In this document: one piece after another, positions 4,264 to 52,809 of the stretch | Position numbering within the stretch: the first letter of the stretch is position 1 | Layout: each line of letters starts with the position of its first letter | From: Amphiscolops sp. MND2022 | Taxonomy: Eukaryota | NCBI GenBank assembly: GCA_964187785.1 | Contig: OZ076409.1 | Location: forward strand, 8,620,001-8,684,000 | Length of the DNA stretch: 64,000 bases | Direction: 5' to 3' | Program-made: the position numbers and the translations under genes | The notes under the pieces: model-generated | What the model was told of the DNA's origin: nothing | Databases searched by the model: none | What the model saw: the letters and a program-made list of their open reading frames with translations, nothing else

Positions 4264-4795
4264 AACAAGCCGAGAACGGCCAAAGTCGGCGCCATATCTA
4301 AGGCTCAAAATTTAAAAAGGGGACCCTTCGGGCTTTGTGAAACTCCAGCTGGTTGCAAAAAATTTGAAAAAAATTGAAGGGGGGACCCTTTGGAGACATG
4401 AAAAAATTTCCCAAAAAAAATTTTTAATCAGATTTTTGAACAGTGTCACAGTGCCGAAAAATGTAAAAGGGGGGACCCTTTGCGATTTTTTGACATCCAT
4501 TGTGTTGCAAAATATCGAAACAAATGAAGGGGGACCCTCTGGTGCAATCCAAAAAACTTCAAAAAATTGCTGAAAAAAAGTGGGGCTAAGGTGTGTTTTC
4601 GAGGTTGTGGGCGTCTGTTTTGTTTTTTCTTTTCGTTTTGGACGCGCTTCTGAGGTTGGAGTTGTTGAGGTTTGAAGTTGTTGAAGTTTGAGGTTGTTGA
4701 ACAAATGAACAAAAAAGTGGACCTTTCGTGTCTAAAAAAAAACTACCCACTGTAATAGTCGGGCACATTTCCTACTAAAATGCGCCGACTAAAAA
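4264..4795 (-). mobile_element. HINE-like element copy
   Basis: Near-identical to 24-568, including both termini. Confidence 0.75.
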
Positions 4796-7890: not shown

Positions 7891-8293
7891 TAATTTTTAA
7901 TTACTGCAACTATTGCAGGGGTAAGGCAGAGTCATACGACGAATATTGTAAAACAATAATAAACGAAGTACTTTATAGTTAACTTTGCTCAATTGCCTAT
8001 TTGTCATGCGGATGAGTTACTTTCACGCGTCATTAATCAGATCTGGTATTTTGTCCTTGTAGTGTTTTGATAGGGGCGCGAATAACTTCTAAGGAGTAAC
8101 GTCTAAAAGTGTTCCGTCAATGACGTCTAAAATCCAAGGCATTAAGATTGGGAATAAGCATGACAGAGCATGACTTGGCTTTAGACGTTATTCCTGCTCC
8201 CCGTGTTTTGACTGTCTGGTATTTTCACTATATGGTATTTTGTCCCCTGGTGTTATGTCCGCTGGTATTTTGACCGTTTTCCCAAATTCTAAG

Positions 8294-11200
8294 CCCCTGC
8301 AAAGTGACATTTGTTCATTGACTGAGGAGACTTCTTTTAAGGGGAGCTATTCGTTTTCCTCTGAAGATGCTGAGAAGTCATCGATGGAAGATCGACTGCT
8401 GGAAAAGAGTTCTGTGTCAATCAATTACTGTGAGATTGGGCCCAGACTACATGGCTTGTCGTCAGCGTACAATTCCTCCACCGGAGAAAGATCCGTTGAA
8501 GTCACCACCACGTCTTCCAGTTACAGCGGGTACACAAAAATAATCGAGAGTTCGGAACCCCTATCTGTGGAAAGCGTATCGAGTAACTGGCACAAAAGTT
8601 CGGTGGCTATTGAGAAAAGGGAAAAAATTACCGATGAAGGCAGTGATACCCATCTGAATCATGAAGGGCGGCCGTTTTTGAACGATAGCTGAAAAAACTG
8701 AAAAAAAACATCTTTCTTGGTTTGTGAAAAACAGTTAGGTTTGGAGCGAAAACGGAGCAAAAATTTCGAACTCTTAAGCAGGGTTATGTTTGAAAACAGA
8801 GATTGTTTCAAAACAGATTCAGTTTTTAATCGGCGCTTTATGAAGTGAAACGCGACTATTATAGTGACTTTTTTTATCCACACGAACTGACCAAAATAGT
8901 TCTTAAAAGTTCTGCAAAATATGATTGCACCAAATTGCACCATTTGGCCTAGCGAACTGAACCAAAAAAGTTTTTCCTGTTTTTCCGCGTAACATACCAT
9001 ACCGGGCGAGACCAAAGGGTCCCCCCTTTCAATTTTTTTCGGCACTGCGAAACTTTTTTCCAGAAATTTTTTTTCCCCAAAGGGTCCCCCCTTCATTTTT
9101 TTTGCTGTTTTGCGTCAGAATGGATGTTGGAAAATCCCAAAGGGTCCCCTTTCAGTTTTTTTGGCACTGTGAGATTTTTTTCCGAAAATAAAATTTTTCC
9201 CCACTTCAATTTTTTGACGTTTTGCGACAGAATGGATGTTGAAAAACCCCAAAGGGTCCCCCTTTCAGTTTTTCGGCATTGTGAGACTTTTTTTCTATTT
9301 TTTTTTCTCTCCAAAGGGTCCATCTTCAATTTCTTTGATATTTTACAACAGATTGGGTGTTTAAAAATCCCAAAGAGTCCCCCCTTCCAGTTTTTCGGCA
9401 TTGTGAGACTTTTTTTCGAAAGTTTGTTTTTTCTCCAAAGGGTTCCCATTTCAACTGCGACAAAAATGTTGACAATTTCGGAAGTGTCCCCCTTTTAGCG
9501 CGCCAGGGGCTCGCGCTAGCGGGCCCCGGCGCGCCATTCGGTCCATTTTTTTTGTTTTTCGATTTTCGAGTACTGTAAATTGACACTTGGAAGTCCTTTT
9601 GCTATTTTTGAGCCTTGGATATGGCGCCGACTTGGGCCGGTCCCGGCTTGTTAAATAAAACAATGTGTTTTTCTTAGCCAGTGAGATTCGATCACATATA
9701 AAACCACAACATACGTAAATGTACAGTTATACATTCGGACCTCAGAAATCGCCTCAATCCACAGAAAATGTCAAAATATGCATTTTCCTATCGCTTCCTA
9801 TCCTTGAATAGTAGCGATGATGCTCTCAAAGATTCTTTGTAAAATTTCCGATATTTTTTGATATTGAATATATTTTTATTCAAAATTCAAGGAATTTAAA
9901 ACAAAGTGTTTTTAAAGTTTAAAACGTTTTCAACATTAAAAACGTTTTTTATTGCAAAGAACGTTTTTAATAACAACCCTGCTCTTAAGGGCTTTATATC
10001 GACAAGAAGGGAACGCTTATTTAGGCCCGAAAAACTGAGGCCCGATAATGAAATGCTATCTGAGGTCCGAAAAGTTTATGCTAGTAATTTGAGGAAACTA
10101 AACAAACAAAAGAATTGAATTGAGACAGTACATGTATTGCTGTTCCTATTCTTGACTTATTTCCAAGCACGTTTGTGTTTAAAGAACAAACTCATCGGGG
10201 CTCAGTTTTTATAATTTCTGGCCTCAAATTACATTCGCTTCGGGCCTCAATTTTTCGGGCCTCAAATATGCTACCCGACAAGAAATGACCATGCTTCATT
10301 CATCATTCTTTGGCACGGATCAGTGAATACTCTTAAGTTTTCGAAAACTGGTTTTTGCTACAAAACCAAACTTCGAATAGTTTGTTGAATTGGGGTATTA
10401 CTTCATGAAGGAAGCGAGAGTGATTCTAGTGGGTGCTACTTTGGAAGTGGAGCTCGGAAAAACTCGCTTCTTCTCGAATTTACGTCAAGGTCAGGGTCAA
10501 GTTTCGAGGACTTATCCAATGACCTCGTGTCAATCCCCGCCGTCCCTCAAAAGACATTGGGTCAGGTCACTGCGAGGTCAGCTCATGTAGAAACAGGCCG
10601 AGAAACCTCTGTGGACGACGGGATCTGTTATGAGAACCAAGTTTCTGCGAGGTCTTTAAATTCCAATGTCGCCGGAAAAGAGGGTTGGTAAAAAACGTTC
10701 TTAAATTAGTCTTTTGATCTAGAGAATGGATCAGTTGAAATTTTAGCCTAATCGATTGTTCGTTCAAAATAACCGGTTACCGGACATCACCAATCGTTCA
10801 GCGGAGAAAACGATTTTGAGCAAATAAATTGTTGCAATGAAATGTTGAGTTGAAATTCAATCGAATTTTCATTACAAAATTAGCTTCCGCGATTTTCAAT
10901 TCGACCGAAAGATATGAAGGAGAATTTCCAAGTCCCAAATAATGTCTTATTTCCGTAAAGTTGTCAGCTTTTCTTCCTTTCATTTTTAAATAGGGGATAA
11001 GTTTCTTTCAACTGGAATAAATTTGAGAAATTGAAAATTTTATTGAATGAAATGGAGAGGAAATGAAAATATTTTGGTTTTTCCCAGTCGGCCGTTTTAG
11101 CGATTTTTGTCAGGTCTATTTTGACCCGTTCTCTGTTGTTTACTCTAAAATAGAAATCCGGAAGTGTGTTTGTTCACGTTGATAACAGTGGATTGTACAC

Positions 11201-14200
11201 AAAATACGATTATACGAAAAATTATACGAAACCCCCAATTTGTTATACGAATTACATGTTATACGAAAATATCATTATTATACGAGTTATACGGAGAATC
11301 GCTTTTTAGCCATTTTGCGTCGATTTTCCCGTATCTGGGTAAAGAAGTGTTTTGAAATTATGAAATTTTTGTGATGAATTTCAAATGAACTGCATTCTGA
11401 AATGGTAATAGGCTATGCGTCATTCGGAAAGGGGGCTATTACGGTCCCCATTTTTTGAAACAATTAACACTTTCCGATAGAAAAATGATCCAAAAAATGT
11501 GCTCCATGCCTTTATACGATATAAGAGGCCAATTATACGAATACACGATATACGAAACGAAACCTTCGATTATACGATTACACGTTATAAGAGGAACTCA
11601 GTATACGACATTACATTGGTTGATAATACCAACTCTACCCACAAAAAGGAGCTGTTCCTTCGTCGAGTAATGTGGAAACCTGTCAGGAGAACAGCGACAG
11701 CAGCAGACCCAGTGCGGGGGGAGAGGGGGCCGTGTCCTTTAGGAGGGGGGTGACTGAAGCCGTGCAGAATCTGCCCAGGATCAGTGAGGTTGATGTGCTA
11801 GAGGTGGCTACTGGTGATAAACAGGGATGTGACTTTTATGCTTAAACCTAAAGACATATTTTGAAATATAGACATATTTCCTAGAAATTAAAAGTTATGG
11901 AAAAATAATCTAGAAATTTATCACAACAATAACAAGACGGGAATATCTAAAAATCACAAGAATAGCGTATATATACAAACCTATCATATCCTCATTAAAA
12001 CATTGGATATCACTTTACCACACTCGAGAGTTTTTTTCACAATTGACTTTGATACTTTCGCCTCAAAGGCAACGATTAACACCTGCTCATTCAAAGTGGC
12101 ATATGATTATTATGCGGAACAATCTTGTAAAAAACTGAATGAATGGTTTTTATTTGACATTTTCCCAAAATTTTTAGACAAATTGGGCCTTTTTTAGTCG
12201 GAGCTTTTCTAGAGAAAAGAGTCGACTATAGTCATGGCTTTTCGTCAGTGTTTTTTTTCTTCATTTTTTTCGATTCACCTGAAGTGACCAAAATAGTTCT
12301 ACAAAATTTTAAATTGCCCCTGTTGGTCCAGGGAACTGAACCAAAAAGGTTTCCCGCGTAATATACAATATCGGATGAGACCAAAAGGTCCCCCTTTTCA
12401 GTTTTTTTTTCGGCATTACGAGACTTTTTTTGGAAAAAATTCTTTAAAGTGTCCCCCTTCAATTTTTTTCGGCATTGTGAAACTTTCCAAAAAAATTTTC
12501 GGGTGCTGTAAAAAATACTTTGACACTTTGAAGTCCTTTTGCTATTTTTGAGCCTTAGATATTGTGCCGACTTGGGCCGGTCCCGGCTTGTTGAAGACAT
12601 TATTATGGACATATTTCGTCCGAACCGAAGTGAAGACATAAAAGTCGCATCCCTGGCGATGACAAGGTGCTCTGCGCTGCTGTCACTGGCACTGGGGGTT
12701 CCGACAGTGTCGTTGTATCCTGCTCCGATATCGACCAGGACTCTAACGACGAAATCGACGAACAGTCCTCCGAAGGTATGTGCAAAGTCTCGTTTTCCTG
12801 GAAAGAAAATGAAAAAAAATCTTTGAACTGTCCGAATTTTTTTCTAAATGATCTATGACAATATTTTTCAATCCTTTTGTACGAAAATGTTTTAGGGATT
12901 TTTTCAGCTTTTCTGGGACATGAAGAGAATAACCAACAAAAAAATTTGTATTTTTCTCTCAAAAAAGCCTCTTTGTTTTAGTGCAAAAAAGTTTAGGATC
13001 TGGTTCGAATCTCCATCAACTCACCATCGCTGTGCTTTGAGCAAGTCCTTCATTCCTAGCTTAGTGGTATAATCTTGACAAAAAAACTTCACCAAAATAA
13101 CATTGCTTCACCACTTGGATGTCATTATGGTCCCATAGCTTGCTATGGGGGGGGGGTTGTAGTATGCGAAAAAGGCACACTTAGAAAAGCAGAACTGCTT
13201 ATTTGGCGTCCACCCCGCTGTAATTGGGAAATTTAACTTACTCTTAAAAATTTTTGTCCAGTTATGTGTATTTTTATTTTTTATTTTCCGCACACATATA
13301 ATGGGGGTGGAAAATCATAATCTGTGTTGCGTATTTTTCCAAATTCTGTCAAATCTCCACGATCTCCATCCACTTCAGTTAGTACTTAAATTAGTTACTT
13401 GGCTCAATTGGTTGTGCGTCTGCTTGGCAGACGCGAGGTCGTAGGTTCGAACCCGTGGTAATGCGTTACATTTTTAGCGGAAATAATCCCGGTTCTTAGC
13501 AGGCGTCTTGTTTCTTATGCCTCGTTCTCGTTATCAGGTACCTCCAACACGACAACCCTGAGTGCTACAGCAGTGACAACCACCTCTTACGGCTCGTCCA
13601 GTATTCCCCTATCCTCGTCTGAGACGACGGAATCGTTTTCCAACATCACTTCCTTGGGGTACATCTCGGACTCCAGCTCAAACCAGCCTTTCACGACCGC
13701 ATCTTCCAAGTTCTTCGACTCACACAGCGCCATAGATGAAGACGAGAAGTCATTGGTGTCCTGCCGAAGTACAACCACCACGATATCCACTTCAAATGCA
13801 GGAATGAGCAAAAAATATTTGGAAAAAAGCAAAAAAAAAAGATTTTTGAAAAAAGTAGATGTCCGTTCTTGACGTGACACTCGTGTTTAGTCGGTGCTTC
13901 ATGAAGTGAAACCCTACTATACTAGTGACTCTTCTTGTTCAATCCACAGGAACTGACCAAAATAGTTCTTGAAAGTTCTACGAAATTTTATGGTCCCAGA
14001 TTGAATCATTTGGCCTAGTGAACTGGACCAAAAAGGTTTTCCCTTTTTCCGCGTAACATACAATACCGGGAGAGACTAAAGAGTCCTCCTTTCATTTTTT
14101 TCGGCATTGCGAGACTTTTTCGATACACATTTTTCGCCAAAGGATCCCCGCTTCATTTTTTGGAGTTTTGCGACAGAATGGATTTTGAAAAATCCCGAAG

Positions 14201-17200
14201 GGCCCCTTCTAGTTTTTCGGCATTGAGATATTTTTTCGAAAAAAAAATTCACCAAAGGGTCCCCTTCAATTTTTTGATGTTTTGCAACAATGGGTGTTAA
14301 AAAATGCGAAAGGGTCCTCCCGGCACGCCATTGCGGTCCAACATTTTGGGTTTTTCAAGTACTGTAGATGAGAATACTTTGACATTTTGAAGTCCTTTTG
14401 CTAATTTTGAGCCTTAGATATGGCGCCGACTTGGGCCGGTCCCGGCTTGTCGAAATACAGTTGTAGCCTGTGTTTCAAAATATCGAATAGGGTAAAGCTC
14501 CATGCGTAAAATTTAGAGATGTGACCCGCTATTCAAACCGCTATTTGACAGCGTTTGTAGTTTCAAAATCGCTATTTCCGCTTATTCATATCCATCGCTA
14601 TAGCGATCTCTACCGCTTTTCCATTCTTCTCTACGTTGCTTAATATAACGTTTTCAAAGTTCGGATGTAACGTTTCCAACGTTTGGATATAACGTTTTTT
14701 GATGTTTTCTCAACCCTGCTCGTACAGCTTCAAGTATGCGGTCCGAGCATGAATACAATTCGAGTACCACCGCTGACAGAACTGCTGACGGAATGTCTCC
14801 TATCGGACTCTCACAGGGCAACGTCAGTTTCAAAATCATGCATGGAGCAGCCACCGAGAGTTCATTTGAGGTGTTCCAAAACGAAAGACTCACTATCCCA
14901 ATGCAGCAGCTGTCAGTTGGTCACGCAAAGGCAGGGTTTTAACATCGCTAATTTTTTCGCTAATCGCTGAACCGCTTATTTCGAATTCGCTATTTCGCTG
15001 AAAAGTTTTTCTCCAAACTATTGAATGTTTGACTTCAAGTTTTTTTTCGAAAATTGAATGATAACTTAATTCAGTTTTTGCGAGAAAAAAGGGAAGCAGA
15101 TTTTCATACTGTGTGGGTTTTACAAAAGTTAAAGCTGGAATTTTTCGAAATTCATTTTGAATCTCTGTGTATACTCTCAAGAAATTTTGATTTTGGACAA
15201 TCTTTTAGTTGCTGCTAATGTAAACGTTAATGAAATCGCTGAAAAATTTTTGCGCGGCCGCTAAATCGCTAATTAGCGGTGTCAAAACTCTGCGCAAAGG
15301 AAAACCAACTATCGAGATCATCCAAACTTGACAACCCACTGATGTTCGAAAACGAGAGAATCCTATCAATAAGCACAGAGTTCCAGTCATCGGGAGCGGA
15401 AAAAATATCGTCAAAGTTGTTCATACAATCCGAAAATGATGACGTAGATAGTGATTCGACGTTAGATGAAGACGCAGAGGATAGCATAAGTTCGAGTTTC
15501 TTCCAGCCTTGTTACTCGGATGATGTGCTAGCAGACGACGAAGATCGGTGCAGGGAATCCAGTTTGGATCTCAAAGGCAGTGATGACCAATTAATTTTTT
15601 GGAAGAAATATCAAACATTTAACGGGTAGACTTTGAATTTAAGCGATCTATTAAATGGATTTTTCCTTGAAAATGGATCGGAAAAAATGAATTTATTCAT
15701 TTTCAGAACCAAGACAAGTCAATCGCAAACGTCAATTCTGCCTTGAGAGTCTATTTCTTCGTTTCTCAGTCAGAAACGTGCCCTCGAAAACATGCGCTTT
15801 GCGATGGCAGGCGAAGGCAAGATGCCGAGGACTGATCTAGCAACCCTCTCTGGATATAAGCTAGCCAATTCAACGGCGTAATGCATACGTTGGAATTGAC
15901 GTGAAATAAAAGGGATCCCAGTAATGGTTTTTAGTCGGCGCTTTTCTAGTGAAAAGTCCCCGACTATTGCAGTGGCTAGTTTTTAGTCGGCGCTTTTCTA
16001 GTGAAAAGTGCCCGACTCTTACAGTGGCTAGTTTTTTTTCGTCAGACTACAATCTCACTCTGATTGGGCCACTTTTCTTACAATCGAAACTACTACTATA
16101 AGGCCAAGTCCGGTCAGCGGAAATTAGTGCAAAAGGGTCCCCCTTTCATTTTTTACTATTTTAACGTAACCTACAATACTGGACGAGACTAAAGGGTCCC
16201 CCCTTTCGATTTTTTTTCGTCACTGTGCGATTTTTTTTTCGAAAATTTTTTAATGTCTCAAAAGAGTCCCCCTTTCGAGTTTTTTGATATTTTGCAACAG
16301 AATATATGTTAAAGCCCAAAGGGTCCCCCTTTTACATTTTTCGGCACTATGCGACTTTTTCTGAAAGAAAAAAATTCAAAAATTTAGTTTTTTTTCAAAA
16401 AAAGTCTTTTGCGCTTTTTGAGCCTTAGATATAGCGCCGACTTTAGACGTTCCCGTCTTGTTTTCTTTTTTTTTCGTCAGACCAAATAGCTCACCCTGTA
16501 TGTACCACTTTTTGTGCATTATGCAGTTTTACCAAAAGTACTCAGCACTTGATTTTGAACACATCCAAAAGCCTATAGCTTGAAATACAAAACCCAGAAG
16601 GGTCCCCCTTTTCCAATTTTTCGGCACTATGAGACTTTCCCCGCCCCTGTTTTCGGCTCTGTGAGCCTTTTTTCATTTTTTTTGGAAATTTTTATCGAAA
16701 TGTCTCCAAAGGGTCCTTCAATTTTTTTGATATTTTGCAACTGTATGGATGTTGAAAAAGTCCAAAGCGCCCCCTTTTACATTTTTTGGCACTATGAGAC
16801 TGTTCAAAATTCTCATTTTTCGTTTTTTTTCAATTTTTTTTAATTTCGGAATTTTTTCATGTCCCCAAAGGGTCCCTCCTTCAGTTTTTTTGATATTTTG
16901 CAAAGGGTCCCCTTTTACAATTTTAATTTAAAAACTTTGCGCTTTTTGAGCCTTGGATAGAGCGCCGAATTTGGCCGTTCGCGGCATGTTGTATATTCAA
17001 TTAATGGAATATTTAAGGGATCCGTTGACCGGATTTTAAATGGGTCCCTTATTTTGATCATCACTGCTGAAAGGTGACTCAGAGCTGGACCATCCGGAAT
17101 TGAAGGGTGACGTGAGTCGTTCAACTACTGATGGCAACCTGAGTAGGTTTGACAATGAACGAAAGCATTCTTCGATGTTGAGTTCTCCCGGTAGCGCAGA

Positions 17201-20200
17201 TGTCTCCATTCTGGGGGATGTCCAGAAGCAAGATAAAGGCGACAGTGAGTTATCTGTGACGTCACCGGCCAACATTGAGAGAAGCTTCAAGGGACCCTCA
17301 CAAAGTGCTACGTTTTTCGCGGCCATCACGCAAAGTTCGTCGAAACATTTGCTGGAGGGTATTAGTCATGATTCAGCCACAGCTGCAGGCACAAACATTC
17401 ATGAGTTGGCGGATATGAGTGACAATTTATCGCCCTTACAGGAGTCAGGTCACGTGATGATTGAGACACGACATCCTGCACAGGTTGCGATATTTTCCGT
17501 TATAAAGAATTTTCCATTTGAAAGAATTCCCGTGTCGAACAACACAGTTATCCAAATTGCGTTAGTTTTAATTTCACCCTATTTGTTTGCGAAGGCGGCT
17601 CTTTTTCCTTTTCCCCGGCACTTTCAAAGAAAAAATATCAACATAAAGGAATATATTTGGCTATATCGTTTAATATTTCGACAAATAAGTCTATTCCTTT
17701 GTTTTGTTGTCTCCACATAAACTCATACTGAGAAAATTTGGCAGCTTCATTTTCAGTCGGCGCTTCATGAAGTGAAACGCGACTATTATAGTGACTTTTT
17801 TTCAATCCACGCGAACTGACCAAAATAGTTCTTGAAAGTTCTACAAAATATTATTGCACCAAATTGCACTATTTGGTCTAGCGAACTGAACCAAAAAGGT
17901 TTGTCTTGTTTTCTCGCGTAACATACCATACCGGGCGAGCCTAAAAGGTCCCCCTTCCAGTTTTTTCGGCATTGTGGGACTTTTTTTGAGAATATTTTAA
18001 TGACTTCAAAGGTTCCCTCCTTCAATTTTGCGACAGAATTATTGAAAAATCCCAAAGTGTGGATTTTTAGCGCCCCAATTCGGTGCAAATTTTGGGTTTT
18101 TCGAGTTTTGTAAAAGAGAATACTTGACACTTTGAAGTCCTTTTGATATTTTTGAGCCTTAGATATGGCGCCGACTTAAGCCGTTCCCGGCTTGTTTTCG
18201 TTCACGCCAAAATACAATTTTGCGGCGAAGTTTATTTTTGCGAATTAGAATAAAGCCGGAAATGTTTTTAAAAAGACTTTTCAATATTAAAAAAGAGTAT
18301 TTTTTTGAAATTACGTGAAATGTTTCATTGGAAAGTCAATTGAGAGCAAATTAATTGCTAAAACAATATCATCTAGAAATGTGTGGGGAAAAAAGTTCCG
18401 CAAAGACATCCTCGGCTTTATTGGAACAGTCAATGAAACTTCGAAACAGTTTTGAGAAAAACATTTAATTTTCAGTGGATGTTTTATCTGTAGTAACTTA
18501 CACAAAAGAAACAAAGTTTCAAGTGTTCACTTGTTCACACTTTCTAATAATTGTTTCATAATTTAATGAAATGGAAAATAATGGCATATTGCGTGAAGGC
18601 AGCAAACTTAGAGCCAGAGGTCACCAACGAAGACTTGTGCAAAAATATCAAACTTGCTGTACTTCTGCAAAATGAATGCACGGCTATTCGTGAACAGAAC
18701 GAAGACTTCATTGTGGACATGAAAAACGTACCGGAAGGAAAATCTGCAAAACACTCCTTCAAAGAGCCCGATTGTGAGGTAGTCGCTCCCAATGCCTCGG
18801 AAATAGTTGAACACGACTTGTATGGGGAAGTAGCTAACCAGAATGAAGACTCATCCCAAACATGTGACATCAATGTCGTTAGACCCAGATGTTCGTCTTT
18901 GGTTACAGGGGGCTGCAACCCACTTGAAAATGCCGACGTAGATTCGTCACCTGCTAAAGTTGACCCTGTAAATTGCGCGTTGGCTTTTGCTGAAACATCT
19001 GAAACTTACTATTCAGCTGTAACTCAACCTTACATCGGCGTGGAAAGTGCCCAAATTCTTAGCGATGAGCTGTTTGAGGAGCAACTAGTCGGTGATAAAG
19101 TCGTCAACAAATCTTCGGTGGTTCAAGTTGATGAATTTTCGAATGATGAAAACCAGAGTTCCGAATCCGAAGAAGCAGAAACATCTCAAAATTTTATCAT
19201 AAAACCCGACAAAGTGTACCGAAGCTCTATGTGCTCAGGAAAATCGGCTGCTGAGACAATGGATATTACGGAAGAAGAGAAGGGATCTTGGGAAGAAATG
19301 CTCCTACAGGCCTCCAATTTCAGTGTGGATGGAAATCAAGTTACCAACGCTTCTTCCAACACAAATACCAGCAACTGCTCCAGCGGGAATAGTTTTTCCA
19401 ACATCATTTGCTCCTTCAACGTGTCAGTTGCCCCCTTCAACAAAGTGGGAGAGCTTTGCACTCTGGGTGTCATAAGTGAAACCAGGGACCGAGAGATTGT
19501 TGTGTGTCGAAACCGAGAAGTCAATGTATTGATGAAAGAAGTTGAAGAAAGTTCTGAACGAGCCGAGAGCGAAGTTGCATTTCATGCAATTGATGCTTCC
19601 TCCAACAAAAAAGTTGTTCCGCTCAAGGGCTCGTTGCCTTTATCAGAAGAAACTCAGAAACTCGAGACCACAGTGAATGCTGGCATTTCAAGATCCGAGG
19701 AACAGCAATCGCTGGAAGTTTTTGAGATGTTCAAAGCCATCGGGGAGACCCATGAAATTGTGGCCAATGATCGAAATGATTCATTCCGAGAGGAACTACC
19801 CTTGTTTTTGCCACTTCCTGAAGACAATGAAGATCAGGATCTGTCTTCCGGCACAGGGCGAGGACTCGATCGGAGTGCGGCAATAACAGTTAGAATAAGC
19901 CCTGTTGAATGTCCTGTTTCTTTGAGCTGCGAAGTGATGAGTTTCCATTTGGGTCAAACTTACGAAGACGATGGAACTACCATTGACCATTCCTGTGAAT
20001 TTTTTTCATGCGATGTTCGGGAATTTGAGATTTCAAAGCAACACAGTACGTCGAACGAACTTCAAGAAATGAAATCCTGTCGGAAAGAAGTTTCCGATGT
20101 TTTCTATGTCGAGGCTTCGGATTTTCGTGACAACAGTTTCGAAAGTGCAGCCTGTGATATGTTGGATTCAGTGGTTCTCGATGGTTTGCCTTGCAATTCT

Positions 20201-23200
20201 CGGAAAACTTCAGAGTTGCTTGCAAATGAAGTGAGTGTCCATGCAAATGGGGGCGAATTCGAAAACGTGTCACAAGCTGAGATTGAATTGGTGAATTCGC
20301 TGAAAGCCGAAATGAACACAATTGAGCATGATGAGTTTCATCCTTCGAAAGCAAAACTTTTCGGCAAAAATCTAGTTCATACCTGCAACATTAAGCCTTC
20401 AGTACTGAAACTGACAGAAGCGCACACTCTTGAATCGTCTCTTTGTGATGTCATAGTAATTTCATCGAGTGAAATCTCAGATGCAGAAATGATCAGAGCG
20501 TGTGAATTTGCCCAGACGCATCAAAACTCCGTGCTAAACTTATCTAGTATTGGTTTGGAAAAAATGGCGAGTGAATTGGAATGGGTTCAGATTCAAGAGG
20601 ATAGTAACTTGAAGATGATTGAACCTTTCATTCAGTTTTCCACACTTACCTGGGTTTATGATCCTGATATTGATCCAGGTACGGAAACAGAATCGCTGGA
20701 GAATTTTGAGCCCCAGCAACCAGTTGGGTCTCCGAGAAGAAGATTCAGATGCGCTTTCCCCAGAAATAATTTCGTGAGATTTAGCCATACAAAAAGCAGA
20801 GTTTTCTCTCAAGTCAATGAGGTTGAAGAAATCAAATGCTTCCGTTTAAGAGCTCCGAGACGAGGAACTTATGGATACTTTGTGCCAGTCATGCCCGATG
20901 ATTTCGACGAGCTAACAATCCGAATGTTTGCATTGTTTGCAAATCCTTCGGTTACTGACGAAGTGACGCCTACTGTACTGAGTGCGTTGGAAGAACCACG
21001 AATTGAACGAACTGATGGATCTATACAGACCCATATAAGTTGCATGGGAAGCATGTATTTCTTTCAAAGTTTATGCCCCACATTTTACGCCCATGATCAC
21101 CGCACAGGCGTTCTTGAGGACATAAGTGAGGAGCATTCATCCGATTTGAGCGGCAGCTCCGAGGCGTCTGTTTCGGTTAGCTTGCATCCAGTTGTAGATG
21201 AGTCATTGAGCACTTTTGATGGCGTCGAAAGCAGCGTGCCTTCGATTTCTTTTTCCGGGACTCTAACTTCGATTAGTGATCGGTTACAAGGAACTGTCAT
21301 GACTCTTGATCAAGGTTCACTTTCAAGTGTGGAAACACCAGTCACCGACATCATTGATGTACTCGATTCTGAATTTACTCTGACTTTTTCGACTCAGGAT
21401 TTAATGCAGTTTGACATCTGTCCTCAAACGATAGAAGAAGCTGCAAGTCTTTCGAAACCCAATGTCAATAACCAGTTTTCTGAAGCTTTGGCGTTATCCT
21501 TAGATGCCAATACCGATCCTGTTGAAGCCAATGAGTCGTTTCATGAAACCAAACCTGTCGTTTTTCGTCGCAAAAACTCAAGTCCTTTCATGGAGTCAAA
21601 AAATGTTTCCGACCTGTTTGAAAATGCGGCTATCAATCCTTGTCGTCAATTGGGGACATCGCCTCGATCTGCATTGAAAATTACTTTAGCTGCCATGGAG
21701 TTGGAATCCAGTTGCGAAATGAAAGATGAGTCATTTGTTTGTAATATGTACGATTATGGGTGTGAAAAACTGGGCGGAATAGACGTGAGTCCTGGATGCA
21801 GTAACACGGACATTGACGAAATCTATCTGAGCTGCAATGGACTTGAGCAAGTGGAACTTTCTCCGCAAGCAGAAAGTGTTGTGTCTTCTTGCAATACTTC
21901 AATGGAGTCTTGCTGCACCGTAGTTCTCAAGTCTGACAACATTGACGACACCAATTTCAACCAATCACAAACTAGTCTGGATCCTCATCCGCAATTCTGT
22001 GATGACAACGTGGAACTAGGAAGCTCTCCGCTTTCTGCTGATCGAACTATAGATTCAATTCCCACTCCAGTGTGTGGAGTTTCCATGGTTTCGTCTCCTT
22101 GCCAAAATTCCAGTCCCAAATTATGCGAGCGATCTTCCAGTATTGTCGAGTCTCGTTTGAAGTTTTCCGTTGTCCCCAACCTGCTCTTGAGCAATAAAGT
22201 TGAAAATGACGTAATTCCGACTGAGTGTGGACAAGTGACGGATGCAGCTTTTTACTCTGAAGAGCTTCAGGTCACTGATGATTCAAAGTTCACCAGATGC
22301 GACCAGTTTGACACCTGCAACCCAGACGTCGCGGGGGACCAAACGTTTTCCAACTTCACCAATTTGGTCTCGGGCGCGAAGCGGGAACTTGTCGAGGATA
22401 AGTTAAGTTCCAATGTCTTCGAAGGAGTGAACAGGCAATGTTCCTTGTACCCAGTGACTATGGAAAATAACTCGTGTCGGGATTCAGAACAAAGCTTCAT
22501 GATAGACAGTCCTTCGCGTTCCAAGGTAATCCCCACTTTCATTCCAAAACCTGAACCTTCCCATACAGAAGTCGAAGGATCTGAAGACTATTCTTCTTCA
22601 GTGGTCAAGTCCAACGGAGTGACATCTTTGGTTACCGAAAACTTTCTATCTAAACAATTCACTCCCAGAAGCCCGCACCTCGAAAACTTTTCTGAGTTTG
22701 ACATGAAAGTGGATTTGAGTTTGATGCCCATCGAAGAATCTCACATTAGTCGTGATTTCTGTTTGGCTAAGAGCAGGTACACAATGAATCGAACAGTTTC
22801 GGACAAACAGTACGACTCTTTTGATCCCGACATGGAGGATCTCCTAATTCGCAGATTCAGTTTTAATACAGGAAAAGGTTAGTTTCCTAGCCACGTATTT
22901 AAATGATTGTACTTATTCGCACTAAATTATTTCTGGTAATAAGGTAATAAAATGGGCGGGAGTTGTTTTTTGGAACAATGCAACAAAAACAATGTGGGAT
23001 ACAGTTTGCGAAATACCGTAAAGCGACAATTCGTCCCAAATTCCAAAAAGCGACAATTGGTCCCAAGCGGCAATTCGTCCCATTTTGAAAAGGCAACAAT
23101 TCGTCCCAATTATTAAAAGCTGCAATTTGTCCCCAATTTAATTGCCAATAAAGACCTTTGTAATAATGGATCCGGAAATATTAAACTTAGAGACAGGTGC

Positions 23201-26200
23201 CAACAATTAATTTTAACATTCCACGTCTAGTGCGTTAAAATGCAACATTTTCTAATTATTGTCACGTGGTTGAATGAATTCATTTGTAGTTGGTTTGATT
23301 ATTTCTTTCGTTTCAACCTTCAAAATGTTGGTAATTAGCTGATCAATTAAACAATTTGGGACGAATTGTCGCTTTTTACAAATGGGACGAATTGTCGCCT
23401 TTACAAAATGGGACGAATTGACGCTTGGGACGAATTGACGCTTGGGACGAATTGTCGCTTTTTGGAATTTGGGACGAATTGTCGCTTGGGACGAATTGTC
23501 GCCCAACCGCGAAATACAGGTTTGCCCTTCGATCAATATCAAAATTATCATCAATACTTCGTCTTTCAAAATTTTTCACAGGGTTTTGACTAGCTATTTT
23601 TTCGCTAAACCGCTTATTTCAAATTCTCTTTTTCACTGGAATAGTTTCTCTCCGAACTACCGAATGTTTGACTTCGAGTATATTTCAAAATGAAATGGTA
23701 ACTTTATTCAATTTTTGAGAGAAAAAAAGTAAAATTTTCCATACTGTGTGCGTTTTACTAGGGTAAGAAATGGAATTTTTCAAAATTCGTTTCGAAACTC
23801 CGTGTATGCTCAAAGCAAATTTTGAATTTCGACAATCTATTATTTGTCGCTAATTTGAATAGCTAATAAAATCGCTGAAAAACTCTTTAATGTTTAACGA
23901 TTACGTAACAAATAACATAAGAGCAAATAACATAAAAACGAGATTAGTCCCATTTAACATAAAAATGAAAATAGTTTCACATAACATAAAAATAAAACCG
24001 AATACCCGGTTAAACAATCGAACTCACGGAATTTTATATGTAATTTTCATACTTTTTTCGGTGAATCTTTTGAATTGTGAATGCCTTTTTTTAGTCGGCG
24101 CGTTTTCCTTTTAAGGAAAAATGCCCGACTATAGCAGTGACCTTTTTTAGTCGGCGCGTTTTCTTTTTAAGGAAAAATGCCCGACTATAGCAGTGACCTT
24201 TTTTTTTCTTCAGACTACAATCCTCACACTGATCGGTCCACTTTTCTTACAATTCTTACAAATCTTAAAATCTTACAATTCTGACTTAGTAAAATTAAAA
24301 TACTTGCGAAGTAGTATTTTTACATCATCTTAGAAACTCAAAGGACCAAAGGGTACGCCCTCCTTAGAGTATTTTCGGCTCTGTGAGACTTTTTTTTCGA
24401 AAAAATTTTTAATGTCTCAAAAGGGTCCCCTTTCTCATATTTTGAGGGTTTTCTCATATTTTGCAACTAAATGTATGTTAATCAATCCCAAAGGGTCCCC
24501 CCTTCTTTATTTTTCGGCACTATGCGACTTTTTTTGAATTTTTTTTTTCAAAAATTACAAGTTTTTTTCCAAAAAAAATGTTTTGCGCTTTTTGAGCCTT
24601 AGATATGGCGCCGACTTTAGACGGTCTCGTCTTGTTTGCTCTTACGTTATTTGGGAATCCACCATTTTCAATTGATTGATTGCGGGATCGTGTCAAAATA
24701 AGCAAACTATCATAATTGCCGCAGTGTTATTCATTTTAGACTTCGCCACACAGGAAATAGAAGGCGGTGCGACCCATCTTGTTGAAGTTGATCATGAAAT
24801 GGGTGCACCGAATGACGAAAGCATCGGATTTGTCGACACCCCTCGCTTCTCTGCAGGTGGCGTTGATGAGCAATTTGATACGTTGTTTGTGAACGACATC
24901 GGTGGCTGTTTGTTTTTGGACCGAAGCTTCGATGTTAGCGACATGGAGGTTGTTACTGAACTAGACGCTTCTCTGCTCAAAACGACAGTCTTGCCATCCT
25001 TGGGGTCTTTCCCAACCAGCCAGGACAGTTGCTCTTTCGTCGATGCGCTTTTGGACGAACACGGAGTGAAGGAGAATGACGTCATGTTTCTCTCTCCCAT
25101 GCCTTCCACAACCTGTTTCCCAAGCCACGATATGTCACCCTGGATTCCCCGCACCTACACCCCTGGAATTTACTCCTCCTATGGCACTGGGTCTGAATGG
25201 ACGGGGACGGAGTATACCAGCAATACTGGCAGTACATATGGTACTACTACTGTTCCCACTACCACCAAATCTAGTGGTCTGTGCGTAATAAGTGAAACAA
25301 CAACCAAACGCAGCAACCCGGTTTTTTATGCCTCAGAACACTTCGAATACAGCAGCAAATCTGACTACAGCAAGTCGAATGATCAAAAGTACGCAGAGGT
25401 TCCCCCACAAAAGGTGAGCAACCACAGTTTCGATAGACCTCTACAAAGCGACGGTGGCACGCCTTGGCCCGAAAGTTACTCCTCTGGAAACGAGATTTGC
25501 AGTTCAGTTTCAACCGAAATGGATATCGAAAAACATAGAACTCCTTTGATACAGGCTCCCAAGGTTATTGACAAAAACATCGCCCCAAGTTCAACTTTAG
25601 TTCACACGCTCTCATTCTCGGAAAAAGAAGATAATGCAAGTCTTTCCAGTAAAGACAAAGACAATTATTCCGGCAAAGGCAAATCATGGCATGGTTTCAA
25701 ATTGTTCCACGATCTCTTTGTTACGGATGATGATAAAAAAGAGAAAAAATTATCTGTCGAAGATCAGGGTTGGCATGCGATTTAAAATTGTTTTTACCTA
25801 ACCTATAAATAAGTTTTTTTTTCGTTTTGGGAACAGGTGTTTGTTACATATTTGGGGCTTTCACATTTTTCAATTGTTTACCTATATTAGAAGCATATCA
25901 GATGTTAAGTCAAGCACATCAGATGTTAAGTGAAGCATATCAGATGTTAAGTGGAGAATGTCAGATGTTAAGTGAATCGTCTCGTCTTTCGTTCCAAATT
26001 TTCAGCCAATCACTGACAACCAAACTGAAAGTGCTTTACAATCAGAAGTCAAGTGAACAATATCAGCATCCAAGTGAGTTAGCAAATAATAATCACCAAC
26101 GACGTTTCCAAATTTAACAAACGCTGACCAAAGAATGCTACATGTACACACAATCGTATGCGGTGTTCGTTCATTCAAGGTCCCATTTCGTTCACATTAG

Positions 26201-29200
26201 TTGAGATTTGCTGTAGCAAGCTAATCAAATTCTATTGGTTGTTGATTCAGTATCTGATGTGCTTCATTTAACGTGGAAACAGTGTATCTTTAAAAATAAA
26301 AACATACAAATTACCAACCCTGCCGAAGATAAACCACCCGTGTCTCCAAAGAATGGAGCGGAGGTAGACCCGAATCAGCGTCAAACCGACCATGGTGTCA
26401 AAATGGGTGTCATCTACGAAAAGGCGAAACTCTTGCCTAAAGTAGTTATTCAGTACCCCAGTAAGGAAAGAAGAAAGACTGGCTCTTTGACTGACAGCAG
26501 CACTGAACCCCCCGGGAACCCAGGGAATCATCCGGGAATCCCCAATTTGTTTGAACCTGGAAAGTTTGATTCGAGTGATTCCAAAAATCCCAATGAAAAT
26601 AATAATAACTTCTGTAGTTATTACACTGCAAGAGAGCACCAATTACCTCCGTCACCCGCTTGTAGATCCTTCACTGTTTTGGATAATCATTCTGGGAAAG
26701 CGTTCGGGGATTCGATTGGTGCTTACCACCAGCCAATCATCGTTGCCGCTGTTCTTCAACCGGATCAAGAATCGTCCATTTTTGACACCACCGGGCGGAC
26801 ATCGACTGTGGATAACAACATCAATCTGAATGCGGTGGGAAGTCCAAACGACGAAGACTTGTATCACTCAGCCGCCGATCATTTGCGCCCAAGTTCGCAA
26901 TCGGTCAGCGAAGGAGAAGGCGGTGGACGTAAAAGCAGAAGAAAAATTATCATCAAAAAACGCATCATCACTGAAGAAAGTTTCGATCTCAGTACTGGCA
27001 ATAGAAGCAGTACCGCAAACTTTGCCGCCAACCCTCGAGAAGAAGCAAATACGGGTGGGATGTCAAAGGAAGGGTCCACTAGCCAACTGGTGACTGCCAA
27101 TACCAACCTGGAAGAATACGAAGGGGAGACGGATCCGGTGTTTTCGCCCACTGTTACTTCCGAGGAGTCATCAAGTTTGAAACAGCCGGCGAATCAACAG
27201 TCCTCTTACAAAAGGACTGTCTCTATTGTGAGGAAAGAGACGAAGGATGAAACTAGTCAAGTCAGTAATCCGGATCAACGTGGAATCGTGTTTGATCTGA
27301 CTGGAGGGAACGTCGATAGTGAAAATGAGAATTTGACCGTTAATTCCGACGACGAAGAAGCGGATGCGGAGTTTCACAGCGTCGAAACTGAAATGCAAGT
27401 GCCGCCTCCTGCAAAGTACCAAACAGTGCCTGCTGCTGTAGACACCATTGAGGCACAAGCCTTGCCCGATTCAGTTCCAGAAGAGGAACCCTTTTCCTCT
27501 CCGATTGCGGATGACGCAATGAGTGCTGGAAATGCGGAAATCATCAGTGCCCGTAGCCAGCAAACCCACTATACCAATTCCTCGTATGAAAATAACTTCA
27601 TAGCCGACGTTCCGGATTCGATGGCGTCGGATTTCCGAGCTCCTGAAACTGGCGAGTCTGTTGCGACAGTTGACGGAGATTACGATGGTAATGGCGACGG
27701 AGGGTTTGACGATGACGTGTGTTCTTGCGAATGCCCGTTTTGTTACTGTCCTGATCAAGGTTGTTAAGCTGTTTTATCCATCAATAAAATACATGAAAAA
27801 AACTTGAATAAAATTATTTTTTAACAAGACGGGAACATCTAACGTCGACGCAATACCTAAAGCTCAAAAAGCGCAAAGTTTTTAAAGATGTAAAAGGGGA
27901 CCCTTTGTGTTTTTTGAAAGTCCAGTTTATTGCAAAATATCAAAAAAATTGAAAGGACCTTTTGGAGACTATAAAAAATTTTCGGAAAAAAAACGAAAAA
28001 TGAGAATTTTGAAAAAGTAGTTCTGTGAAAAAAGTGTCCACTACGCATACATTCTGTTGTCTGACGAAAAAAAATAGCCACTGTAATAGTCGGGCTTTTT
28101 ACCTTTTAACACTGTTTTTTGGACACTTTTCAGTTTTCATGGTCTGACTGTTCAATTTGTTTGCTACTTTTTGTTCACATGTCAGAACGCCTCGTGTGAA
28201 AGTGATATCTGGAAAAATCAATAAAGTGAATGACTTTTATGCTTTATATTCCTTTGTTAAATTTTTGTACAATGAAATAATATTTGGCAACAAATGAAAA
28301 ACTGGTGTGCATCACACATTGTTTTACACGATAGTATTCACAAGAGGAAAAAAACAATGAAATGCAAAAACAGTATATTTCGTTAAAAACATGTTTGAAA
28401 CATTTTCGTGAAAGAAAAACTGTATAATTAACAACGTTGGTGCTGATTCAGAGAGGGAAAACCTCTATGGTCCGCCTTCCCCGAGATACTCTGGCTCGTC
28501 TAGTTCTTCCTGCTCAGATCCCAACTGTTCCGGGCGGTATTCCAGGGGCTCAACCTCTAGTTACTGTTCGGACCCTGAATGCCAAGGTGACGTCAATCAA
28601 ATGCATTATCCCACAAACCAACATGGGTCCTACAGTTTTTCCCAAAGCTCCACTCCCGAGATGGCTTCGTTTTACGTCGAAGACGACAACACTTCTGACA
28701 ATCTGAACTCTTTCAGGCAGTGATGACCATTTTTTTGTTATTTAAAGCTAAATTAAAATGAAAATCATTTAAATATATTTTCATTAAATTTGAATGATTC
28801 ATTTAAATGATTTTTGTGCCATTTAAACGGTTTCTTAAATTTCTTTTTTTGAAGAAGTTTTTAAACTGAATGATTAAATTTATTTCAAAAATTCATTTGT
28901 AGTTTAAGCAACTAAAAGTAGTGTACGAATGTTTCTTGTATCGAGTCTGTTTCTACGGTTCGCCGTAAAAAAACGGAGCCTTTGAAAAAGCTCTCTGCGT
29001 GGGCACGTGACGCGGCAATATGCACAATATGATTAACAGCCAAAATTTTGTTGCTTTGCCAGGACGTTGTAGTTAATTACATGGCATAATCATTCAAATC
29101 TGAAAAATAAGTGGCTGTAATGAAAACACATGAACATTTAAAGAACGTTTAAATTTATATGATTCCTTTAAATGATTTGCCTTGAAAATCAGTTGAATTT

Positions 29201-29683
29201 GATTAATCAATTGAATAATCATTTGAATGATTTATTTAAATGGTCATCACTGCTTTCAGGGAATCGGTCGCTTCGGGACCATCTGCTGGTAATTCGGAAA
29301 ACTTTGTGGTCACGGTCGAAGATATGGATAGTCCTGATCGAGTTAAGCGCCACATACTTTCTGTGGTCCCTGAGATAATGGACCAATCTAGAGTTAGCAA
29401 AACGCGCAGGTTGCATATACATCAAACCAGACGAGTCACTGAAACCAACAGAATTTCCGAGAACGATGATCAATTCGAAGTTTCTCCTGAGGCCAATTAC
29501 TGGCCCCGAGAACAGCATGCCACTAGAGCAGTTAGATCGAGGAAAACCAAACGCTTCTCGGTTTCCGATCTCCCGTCTGAGGAATCAACTGTTACGAGCG
29601 TGCCAACTTCCAAGCAAAATCAACCCCCCGAAATACAACAGCACAAGTCTTCAAGATTCAACATCTTCAGGTGGCGCAAATAG
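8294..29683 (+). CDS. Large multi-exon gene, at least 3,161 aa, Ser/Glu/Asp-rich, probably disordered, function unknown (5' end not determined)
   Basis: Exons 8294-8639, 10411-10683, 11649-11824, 12667-12775, 13538-13801, 14728-14930, 15300-15576, 17074-17483, 18599-22877, 24740-25768, 26329-27759, 28452-28716 and 29260-29683 join in phase (9,486 nt, divisible by 3) and end at TAG. Donors at 11825 and 13802 are uncertain. Confidence 0.75.
8779..9981. mobile_element. Nested hAT-type MITE
   Basis: CAGGGTT...AACCCTG ends with perfect 8-bp TSD CTCTTAAG (8771-8778, 9982-9989). Confidence 0.8.
8823..9652 (+). mobile_element. HINE-like element copy (nested)
   Basis: Full termini; closely similar to 33667-34370. 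Confidence 0.75.
10009..10276. mobile_element. Foldback MITE with target duplication
   Basis: Imperfect TIR of about 37 bp, GGGAACGCTTATTTAGGCCCG / CGGGCCTCAAATATGCTACCC, flanked by GACAAGAA on both sides (8 bp, or 9 bp with the preceding C). Confidence 0.75.
10680..11637. mobile_element. Old MITE forming intron 10684-11648 (GT-AG)
   Basis: GAGGGTTGGTA / TACCAACTCTA inverted ends; TSD decayed; interior has TTATACGA repeats. Confidence 0.5.
11822..12655. mobile_element. hAT-type MITE forming the intron that ends at 12666
   Basis: 19-bp TIR CAGGGATGTGACTTTTATG / CATAAAAGTCGCATCCCTG (1 mismatch); decayed TSD GTGATAAA / GCGATGAC; contains a HINE copy at about 12190-12592. Confidence 0.75.
12995..13245 (+). 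mobile_element. tRNA-derived SINE fragment
   Basis: B-box GGTTCGAATC followed by AGCAAGTCCTTCATTCCTAGCTTAGTGG; homologous to 63160-63592 (minus). Confidence 0.55.
13396..13460 (+). pseudogene. tRNA-like relic / SINE head
   Basis: A-box TGGCTCAATTGG and B-box GGTTCGAACCC; no convincing acceptor stem. Confidence 0.4.
13799..14718. mobile_element. Old hAT-like MITE forming the intron that ends at 14727
   Basis: CAGGAATGAGCAAA / TTTTCTCAACCCTG imperfect inverted ends; TSD not recognisable; contains a HINE at about 13886-14450. Confidence 0.5.
14932..15292. mobile_element. hAT-type MITE forming intron 14931-15299 (GC-AG)
   Basis: 22-bp TIR CAGGGTTTTAACATCGCTAATT / AATTAGCGGTGTCAAAACTCTG; perfect TSD CGCAAAGG; removal gives HAK-ENQL. 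Confidence 0.9.
15578..17066. mobile_element. hAT-type MITE forming intron 15577-17073 (GC-AG)
   Basis: TIR CAGTGATGACCAA / TTGATCATCACTG; TSD CTCAAAGG / CTGAAAGG; removal gives LDLK-G-DSEL; contains tandem HINE copies at about 15927-16991. Confidence 0.85.
17749..18196 (+). mobile_element. HINE-like element copy
   Basis: Both characteristic termini present. Confidence 0.7.
23020..23506. repeat. Foldback element with tandem subterminal repeats
   Basis: Left arm GCGACAATTCGTCCCA repeats; right arm TGGGACGAATTGTCGC repeats (inverted). Confidence 0.7.
23579..23886 (+). mobile_element. Second copy of the 14932-15292 MITE family
   Basis: Starts CAGGGTTTTGAC and is collinear with 14932-15245 (ACCGCTTATTTC, GAATGTTTGACTTC, CATACTGTGTG, GACAATC). 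Confidence 0.75.
24086..24636 (+). mobile_element. HINE-like element copy with duplicated 5' hairpin
   Basis: The 5' unit TTTTAGTCGGCGCG...CCGACTATAGCAGTGACC (about 57 bp) occurs twice. Confidence 0.7.
25765..26322. mobile_element. hAT-type MITE forming intron 25769-26328 (GT-AG)
   Basis: TIR CAGGGTTGG / CCAACCCTG; TSD TCGAAGAT / CCGAAGAT; internal 21-bp tandem repeat (four units, about 25890-25975). Confidence 0.85.
27756..28439. mobile_element. hAT-type MITE forming intron 27760-28451 (GT-AG)
   Basis: TIR CAAGGTTGTTAA / TTAACAACGTTG; TSD GTCCTGAT / GTGCTGAT; intron length equals element + 8. Confidence 0.85.
28718..29252. mobile_element. hAT-type MITE forming intron 28717-29259 (GC-AG)
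   Basis: Perfect TIR CAGTGATGACCATTT / AAATGGTCATCACTG; perfect TSD CTTTCAGG; removal gives NSF-R-ESVAS. Confidence 0.9.
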
Positions 29684-42130: not shown

Positions 42131-42145
42131 CTACCCTCCCCCGTG
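42131..42145 (-). other. Polypurine tract
   Basis: Minus strand CACGGGGGAGGGTAG abuts the 3' LTR. Confidence 0.85.
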
Positions 42146-42170
42146 AAAGGCTGCGTCCCCGCCAGCCAAA

Positions 42171-52799: not shown

Positions 52800-52809
52800 T
52801 AGGCCGCTC

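Follow-up and report, generated by a model that had tools for sequence, protein, structure and literature searches.

Probable conversion of hAT-type miniature transposons from several families into introns of one long gene in Amphiscolops sp. MND2022

We analyzed a 64,000-nucleotide stretch of the Amphiscolops sp. MND2022 genome (assembly GCA_964187785.1, contig OZ076409.1, positions 8,620,001 to 8,684,000; hereafter the window), which carries on its + strand, at 8174-29683, a chain of open frames that we model as one host gene. Miniature transposons with inverted repeats (MITEs) of hAT type, drawn from at least five families of terminal inverted repeats (TIRs), have probably been turned into introns of this gene repeatedly, and the ordinary spliceosome probably removes them. 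Seven of the 12 introns each comprise a TIR element (E1, E3a, E5, E6, E9, E10, or E11) together with a single copy of the 8-bp target site duplication (TSD) that flanks it, and cutting out the element plus 8 nt keeps the reading frame in all seven cases. The two TSD copies match at 8, 8, 7, 7, 7, 7, and 5 of 8 positions. In window coordinates, the elements are:

E1, 8641-10403, + strand: intron 1 = 8641-10411; TSD GATGAAGG/CATGAAGG at 8633-8640 and 10404-10411 (7/8); TIR CAGTGATACCC / AAGTAATACCC, matching 9/14, also given as 9/11.
E3a, 11822-12655, + strand: intron 3 = 11822-12663; TIRs CAGGGATGTGACTTTTATG / CAGGGATGCGACTTTTATG, about 20 nt overall, the right one at 12644-12655 (11/12 match); TSD GTGATAAA/GCGATGAC (5/8).
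E5, 14932-15292, + strand: intron = 14932-15300; a 361-bp MITE with TSD CGCAAAGG (8/8) and TIR match 11/14.
E6, 15578-17066, + strand: intron = 15578-17074; TSD CTCAAAGG/CTGAAAGG (7/8); TIR CAGTGATGACCA (12/14); outer arms from a repeat family, with a large abundant repeat nested between them.
E9, 25765-26322, + strand: intron = 25765-26330; TSD TCGAAGAT/CCGAAGAT (7/8); TIR CAGGGTTGG (10/14); a second repeat nested at about 25946-26287.
E10, 27756-28439, + strand: intron = 27756-28447; TSD GTCCTGAT/GTGCTGAT (7/8); TIR CAAGGTTGTTAA (11/14).
E11, 28718-29252, + strand: intron = 28718-29260; TSD CTTTCAGG (8/8); TIR CAGTGATGACCATT (14/14).

An initial annotation of this DNA had placed six TIR/TSD elements at 8641, 14932, 15578, 25765, 27756, and 28718, and had stated that deleting each element with one TSD restores the frame. 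When the intervals between neighboring coding frames were searched blind for inverted ends flanked by direct repeats of 8 bp, each of the six came first in its own interval and was in frame; E1, which has the abundant repeat nested within it, ranks weakest among them. Scanning the whole window (TIR at least 10/12, TSD at least 7/8) returned seven structures, as opposed to 0, 1, 1, 0, and 0 in five shuffles. Five of the seven are host-gene elements, and one lies at an exon border of a neighboring Vav-like gene. TIRs with 8-bp TSDs are found at exon borders far above chance. A further TIR/TSD element lies outside the gene at 3034-4502 (TIR CAATGGATGT, TSD 7/8), with no evident exon border there.

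The same annotation had proposed three more elements with decayed TSDs, of which only the one at 11822 held up, since its right TIR was located at 12644-12655 and its removal is in frame. For those at 10680 and 13799, the TIR match of 9/12 is reached by 19% of random pairs, the TSDs (5/8 and 3/8) are within chance, and excising the element with 8 nt breaks the frame. None of the TIRs of introns 10684, 13799, 17484, and 22878 rises above chance, and a transposon origin of the ends of intron 17484-18598 is not shown. The description of the introns as mostly MITEs thus applies to seven of 12 rather than to the nine claimed. The proposal of several distinct TIR families was borne out: the elements include the types CAGTGATGACC, CAGGGTTTTGAC, CAGGGTTGG, CAAGGTTGTTAA, and CAGGGATGTGAC, and each host-gene element comes from a different family or subfamily. 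The TSD copies differ at four of 48 positions in the original six elements and at seven of 56 when E3a is included, so the insertions are not brand new.

The final model of the host gene has 13 exons and 12 introns, the same intron count as in the initial annotation, and joins into 9597 nt, or 3198 codons plus a stop, with zero internal stops. The encoded protein is rich in serine and acidic residues, low in complexity, and fast-evolving. Translations of 12 exons gave no Pfam family at threshold, and a protein atlas search returned only scores below 0.8. Scans of the window gave no match in Rfam and no tRNA called by ARAGORN. The exons and the remaining introns are:

Exon 1, 8174-8640, + strand: the open frame begins at 8174, which is the modelled start and not an established 5' end of the gene.
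Exon 2, 10412-10683, + strand: from the gene model.
Intron 2, 10684-11648, + strand: GT-AG, GAGG/GTTGGT ... AAAAAG/ (here and below, single slashes in splice sites mark the junction); its ends resemble the CAGGGTTGG TIR type, within chance; carries a nested 435-bp repeat.
Exon 3, 11649-11821, + strand: from the gene model.
Exon 4 ("exon 3b"), 12664-12775, + strand: revealed by the right TIR of E3a.
Intron 4, 12776-13537, + strand: strong GT-AG, GAAG/GTATGT ... TTATCAG/.
Exon 5, 13538-13798, + strand: from the gene model.
Intron 5, 13799-14727, + strand: begins CAGGAATG and ends ACAG, with no in-frame GT donor; its ends would be CA-AG, or GA-AG 3 nt downstream.
Exon 6, 14728-14931, + strand: from the gene model.
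Exon 7, 15301-15577, + strand: from the gene model and a relative's frame.
Exon 8, 17075-17483, + strand: from the relative's frame.
Intron 17484-18598, + strand: GT-AG, CACAG/GTTGCG ... GTGAAG/; missing from the relative's open frame.
Exon 9 (the large exon), 18599-22877, + strand: 1426 codons.
Intron 22878-24739, + strand: ordinary GT-AG with strong signals, AAAAG/GTTAGT ... TTCATTTTAG/; its interior holds a decayed E5-family copy.
Exon 10, 24740-25764, + strand: from the gene model.
Exon 11, 26331-27755, + strand: from the gene model and the relative's frames.
Exon 12, 28448-28717, + strand: from the relative's frame.
Last exon (13), 29261-29683, + strand: includes the stop codon.

An 11-intron model that spliced 11829 to 13537 and omitted exon 12664-12775 was replaced once the right TIR of E3a had been located; this canonical skip is possible as an isoform. 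By eye, 13400-13460 within intron 12776-13537 looks tRNA-like in the fashion of a short interspersed element (SINE) head, but ARAGORN calls none in the window. The window has about 40% G+C and is repeat-rich, in an assembly of 1.07 Gb in 1929 contigs. A very abundant repeat (at least 9211 first-look candidates in the genome), whose internal units measure about 120 bp, is nested in most host-gene introns, including inside several of the MITEs:

Abundant nested repeat, within introns: about 8815-9655, 12264-12595, 13883-14454, 15928-16990, 17742-18202, 24088-24643, and 27817-28013.

Four elements (E5, E6, E9, and E10) belong to repeat families whose other copies end exactly at the TIRs. For E5, a genome search gave 3934 first-look candidates; 39 of 41 non-self matches start at query positions 7-12 and 37 of 41 end at 368-371, where the element itself occupies 9-369. 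The E10 family gave 4869 candidates, with 29 of 39 long matches ending at query positions 691-694 (element end, 692). Nested repeats swamped the whole-element queries with E6 and E9, for which the arms alone were then used; they likewise swamped the whole query for intron 2 and the query with the left arm of intron 17484-18598. The E6 left arm found 129 candidates (29 of 41 matches start at query positions 8-10), and in all 20 fetched copies the TIR lies at the predicted base, its first 11 bases unchanged in 14. The E9 family is smaller, with 27 candidates and 14 of 27 matches starting at positions 7-11. The family of E11 is low-copy: loci from three genomic places match the final 100 bp of the element, up to and including the last base.

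The TIRs of hAT transposons are short and begin with CAG or TAG, and their target consensus is nTnnnnAn. Among 31 sampled E5-family copies, 26 have an 8-bp TSD matching at 7-8 of 8 positions, and of 23 E5-family TSDs, 17 have T as their second base and 13 have A as their seventh, in line with the hAT target pattern. The genome also contains 2215 candidates for the hAT dimerization domain, and all 150 that were scored exceed the cut-off. Four of four sampled autonomous loci are 2.2-2.3 kb elements with frames of 610-697 codons, TIRs matching at 11-12 of 12, and TSDs at 8 of 8; their element starts are TAGGGATGTGCC, TAGAGCTGCGCG, TAAGCCTGCGCG, and TAGACATGGACA.

Intact-looking hAT elements, in locus coordinates: L092, 1354-3674; L093, 1030-3270; L094, 893-3120; L095, 1004-3289.

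At L071, another locus with a hAT domain match, no TIR/TSD was found within 3.2 kb. Several transposase matches have equal frame length, an observation that suggests recent hAT activity. By these sequence features, hAT elements appear to be alive or recently alive in this genome. Similarity between the four sampled elements and the MITEs of the host gene extends no further than the first 10-12 nt; the best match between ends (L093 with E3a, 10/12) comes with no subterminal similarity, and none of the four appears to be the direct parent of a host-gene MITE. The 8-bp TSDs, the short CAG/TAG-type TIRs, and the hAT transposons in the genome agree with the hAT-like assignment made in the initial annotation and support the view that the seven elements are hAT-like non-autonomous transposons from several families.

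A relative species, known from predicted open frames on genomic contigs of 95 and 229 kb, provides orthologous sites for comparison. Its frames are 42-54% identical to the host-gene protein. One of them, P0004, matches the host locus and nothing else in the window's genome, so the relative's frames are most likely the orthologue. They cover the sites of E6, intron 17484-18598, E10, and E11, while those of E1, E3a, E5, and E9 fall outside this coverage. The 879-residue frame P0009 spans the exons on either side of E6 and of intron 17484-18598 as one frame, P0004 and P0002 run continuously through the E10 site, and P0006 runs through the E11 site, where the join SFR/ESV corresponds exactly to removal of the element and one TSD. 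The relative's coding sequence is thus uninterrupted at all three element sites that could be checked, as the initial annotation anticipated for orthologues, which supports E6, E10, and E11 as lineage-specific intron gains. The relative's gene is no processed copy, being itself split into several frames. At two places, within exons 18599-22877 and 28448-28717, those frames break off while the host gene runs on; intron positions therefore differ in both directions, and the relative may have its own lineage-specific interruptions. A search with exon 17076-17483 among proteins of near length returned only the window's own frame.

The intact frame can be set against the age of the insertions. We simulated neutral substitution on the host coding sequence and counted stop-free runs: 2% of runs were stop-free at 1% substitution and none at 2%. 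Open frames from two further contigs of the same species, of 157 and 217 kb, gave allelic sequence. Two alleles of one exon differ by five substitutions, of which one falls on the called start, as well as by two indels of a single codon each; both alleles run into the ends of E9 and E10. A frame that is intact despite aged insertions indicates that the elements are compatible with function, and hence they are presumably removed from the message.

Because the TSD is duplicated, sequence alone cannot place the splice junctions; we enumerated all frame-keeping GT/GC...AG pairs for each intron. For E1, E5, E6, and E11, a predicted GC-AG pair excises exactly the element plus one TSD (AG/GCAG ... 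AG/G), which in E5 reads AAG/GCAGGG ... CAAAG/G. In E1, E6, and E11 there is an alternative GT two bases into the TIR, which would add 3 nt. E9 has an in-frame GT-AG option inside the TIR that adds 6 nt, and E10 has CAAG/GTTGTT ... TTCAG/, with the AG four bases beyond the TSD, leaving the length the same and altering one codon. Introns 10684, 12776, 17484, and 22878 are plain GT-AG. Precise non-canonical junctions would not be needed for most introns, as in-frame GC-AG or GT-AG pairs are available for most of them, either right on the borders or only a few bases away. The initial annotation's proposal of repeated intron gain from several MITE families is supported for the host gene, whereas its exact element-plus-TSD junctions are not required, and we regard its interpretation overall as partly supported.

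The TSDs themselves point to the way in which these insertions have survived. Four of the seven end in AGG, versus zero of 43 sampled copies elsewhere (23 TSDs from the E5 family and 20 left flanks from the E6 family; Fisher p = 1.5e-4); in the host coding sequence, 1.2% of 3-mers are AGG. Given its absence from TSDs elsewhere, AGG would reflect a survival filter rather than an insertion preference, and a requirement for a conventional AG acceptor and an AG/G exon end would predict such a filter.

We propose that small non-autonomous hAT-type transposons hit coding exons of a long, fast-evolving gene at different times, each insertion producing an 8-bp target duplication. The surviving copies would be those that the pre-mRNA machinery can excise, and each would now act as an intron. 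The ordinary spliceosome would use signals formed where the TSD meets the TIR. At a target ending in AGG, the left copy together with the CAG of the TIR would make an AG/GCAG donor and the right copy an ..AG/G acceptor, so that excision is exact. Other elements would use a GT within the TIR (CA/GTGATG, CAGG/GTTGG, or CAAG/GTTGTT) with an AG in or just past the TSD, and the in-frame change to the message would be 0 to 6 nt. Pairing of the TIRs in the RNA could bring both ends together.

Outside the host gene, a second gene of the window also carries a MITE within its coding sequence, and a third case was found elsewhere in the genome. The window features concerned are:

Vav-like gene, 36371-40505, + strand: CH, RhoGEF, C1, and SH2 domains; best solved relatives Vav1 and Vav3.
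MITE splitting the CH domain of the Vav-like gene, 36788-37216: 429 bp; TIR CAAGGGTGTTAA; TSD ATTACATG/ATTGCATG.

One 725-codon exon encodes most of the Vav-like protein. The frame is kept after removal of this MITE plus 8 nt, and its family differs from that of E5. With no AG in the stretch 37112-37248, excising this MITE exactly would be non-canonical. The intron that follows, from 37391, shows a canonical GT donor; its acceptor was seen by eye only. The C-terminal half of the CH domain alone has no match in Pfam or PDB, so the structure of the Vav-like protein cannot decide between splice models. Elsewhere in the genome, on another chromosome (G000:C2, about 2.151-2.155 Mb), two adjacent copies of a B-box zinc-finger gene (L010 and L011) each carry an in-frame E5-family MITE with an 8/8 TSD. 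The arm ahead of the MITE matches positions 2-30 of 42 of Pfam zf-B_box, placing the insertion inside the B-box motif, and there is no AG among the bases read beyond the MITE, so that either the gene copies are broken or the MITEs act as non-canonical introns. The window also appears to hold a Ty3/gypsy-type long terminal repeat (LTR) retrotransposon at about 42100-52900 on the - strand, with long open frames for gag (51139-52437) and pol (47141-51172; protease, reverse transcriptase (RT), RNase H, and integrase) and an extra 840-codon frame (43710-46232) without a Pfam match.

A dedicated introner system, in which transposons generate introns across the genome, is a stronger claim than repeated gain in one gene. 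The element families have hundreds to thousands of copies, chiefly outside coding sequence, and look like ordinary MITEs rather than specialized intron makers. Only three of 31 sampled E5-family copies exceed the control's 95th percentile for open frames across the junction, too few to show such a system genome-wide. One of these three (L029) proved to be a satellite, and the other two (L026 and L033) were unconvincing.

Several observations weigh against intron gain with ordinary splicing as we propose it. There is no GT/GC-AG pair at or near the borders of E3a (no canonical pair within 15 nt), of intron 13799-14727, or of the MITE in the Vav-like gene, and the nearest in-frame pairs shift the message by 15-21, 9, and 18 nt (the last a loss from a GT-AG pair), respectively. 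Splicing of the host gene is inferred from the preserved frame, and the empty sites in the relative from protein alignments of open frames, one of which (P0009) has a 5-residue gap at the E6 junction. The flanks of E6-family copies were examined on one side only, and a genome search with the left arm of E1 matched itself alone, with no relatives detected. The difficult borders are the main argument for a different account, in which hAT-type MITEs would be removed exactly at their TIR/TSD borders even without GT/GC...AG, by relaxed, hairpin-guided, or otherwise specialized splicing comparable to that of Fritillaria borealis or euglenids. The borders of E3a (CA..AC), of intron 13799-14727 (CA-AG or GA-AG), of the Vav-like MITE, and of the B-box copy L010, all without a canonical precise pair, fit that account. 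In the RNA fold predicted for the E11 intron, the two TIRs form a strong pairing (z = -5.3), and PMC11282704 describes nonconventional euglenid introns with CAG/CTG-paired ends and TSD-like repeats. We nevertheless consider border-exact removal unlikely. The AGG filter on TSDs fits a conventional AG acceptor, the same genes contain strong canonical introns (22878-24739, 12776-13537, and 37391 onward), and the AG/AC and AG/AT termini and YAY triplets given for F. borealis in PMC13326754 are not seen here. Each difficult case also has an in-frame canonical alternative that alters a few codons, and the B-box copy may be a broken gene.

The remaining explanations appear much weaker. If the gene were dead or dying, the transposons would be unremoved disruptions and the open frames leftovers; the lack of a Pfam domain on any exon and the low-complexity, fast-evolving protein would fit. 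This is very improbable in our view, as 3198 stop-free codons are unexpected given the TSD divergence and the simulation, both allelic indels are whole codons, and the relative retains long open frames at 42-54% identity. It is slightly harder still to believe that the introns are old and that MITEs landed beside their borders later, or that the relative lost them. Loss is conceivable for intron 17484-18598, which is missing in the relative yet lacks transposon ends; each of the seven elements, however, adjoins coding sequence at both of its TIR ends and has its TSD in frame, and the relative's join at E11 equals removal of the element and one TSD. Excision from somatic DNA by programmed elimination, rather than from RNA, seems the most far-fetched of all. 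It shares with the eliminated sequences of ciliates the geometry in which removing the element and one TSD restores the frame, and that geometry is all that favors it. The elements are present in the assembled DNA of two alleles, on the 157-kb and 217-kb contigs whose frames enter the ends of E9 and E10, and hAT excision usually leaves footprints. We therefore retain ordinary spliceosomal removal of inserted MITEs as the preferred explanation, and repeated, recent intron gain by hAT-type MITEs in the host gene is supported.

The origin of new introns in animals is poorly documented, and the process is unusually clear at this locus, which unites several dated insertions, donor families, live hAT transposons, and a relative that is unbroken at the checkable sites. 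The AGG-ending targets would show which insertions survive, namely those on a proto-splice site. The locus is suited to asking whether the ordinary animal spliceosome is sufficient to turn an exon hit into an intron or whether its rules have been relaxed. If border-exact removal were true after all, it would amount to a mode of splicing that neutralizes exonic transposon hits. Next to Fritillaria, it would then be a second and independent case among animals, here linked to a hAT population that is active at present.

Splicing of hAT elements has a precedent in maize, where Ac/Ds elements were reported in the 1980s to be spliced from the transcripts of mutant alleles. There too, hAT ends of the CAGGGATG type give donor sites and an exon insertion acts as an intron, but those were laboratory alleles with imperfect splicing, whereas the introns described here would be fixed and evolutionarily retained. 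Introners, or intron-generating DNA transposons, occur in Micromonas, Aureococcus, dinoflagellates, and others, and are well described in protists and fungi (Gozashti et al. 2022, PMC9860276; Gozashti et al. 2025, PMC12130899; PMC11282704). According to these sources, TIR DNA transposons are the chief source of introners; TSDs supply the splice sites, some donors are GC, and an insertion sometimes adds a few codons. In a survey that took in 3,325 genomes, introners were reported from two animal groups only (Gozashti et al. 2022, PMC9860276), listed in its supplement as Oikopleura-like and copepod-like marine assemblies. Our literature search, which did not extend to Datasets S2/S3 of PMC12130899 or to most of the PMC9860276 supplement, turned up no animal with hAT-type MITE introns. 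As in introners, a non-autonomous TIR element plus TSD makes up the whole intron here and is absent at the orthologous sites that could be checked in a relative; a few codons would be gained or altered by some of the insertions, and GC donors, common in some introner families, are predicted. Unlike introners, the elements here are of hAT type with 8-bp TSDs, come from several unrelated families in one animal gene of a genome of about 1.07 Gb, and belong to families that resemble ordinary MITEs and lie mostly outside genes.

An animal parallel is the tunicate F. borealis, which has species-specific introns with TIRs and TSDs, thought to be MITE-derived (PMC13326754, citing Henriet et al. 2019). 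Non-GT/AG introns account for 95% of the total in that species, chiefly as AG/AC and AG/AT, and have YAY triplets ahead of the 5' site and at the 3' end (PMC13326754). The likeness lies in MITE-type introns with TIRs and TSDs in an animal; the difference is that strong GT-AG introns exist here and most of the MITE introns permit GC-AG or GT-AG. The exact borders here are CA..GG, CA..AT, and CA..AC, and no slide along the TSD gives AG..AC or AG..AT. Dinoflagellate introners, among whose introns GC-AG borders are prevalent (PMC11282704), similarly turn an insertion into a GC-AG intron, comparable to the AG/GCAG...AG/G arrangement here; they differ in being from protists and other element families, and GC-AG is here a prediction from sequence. 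The nonconventional introns of euglenids share CAG...CTG pairing near their ends and TSD-like border repeats (PMC11282704), but those are non-spliceosomal and from protists, while the present case involves an animal-looking genome with a Vav-like CH-RhoGEF-C1-SH2 gene. What sets this locus apart is that a single gene has taken up several hAT-type families unrelated to each other, that live hAT transposons share its genome, and that its TSDs show the AGG filter.

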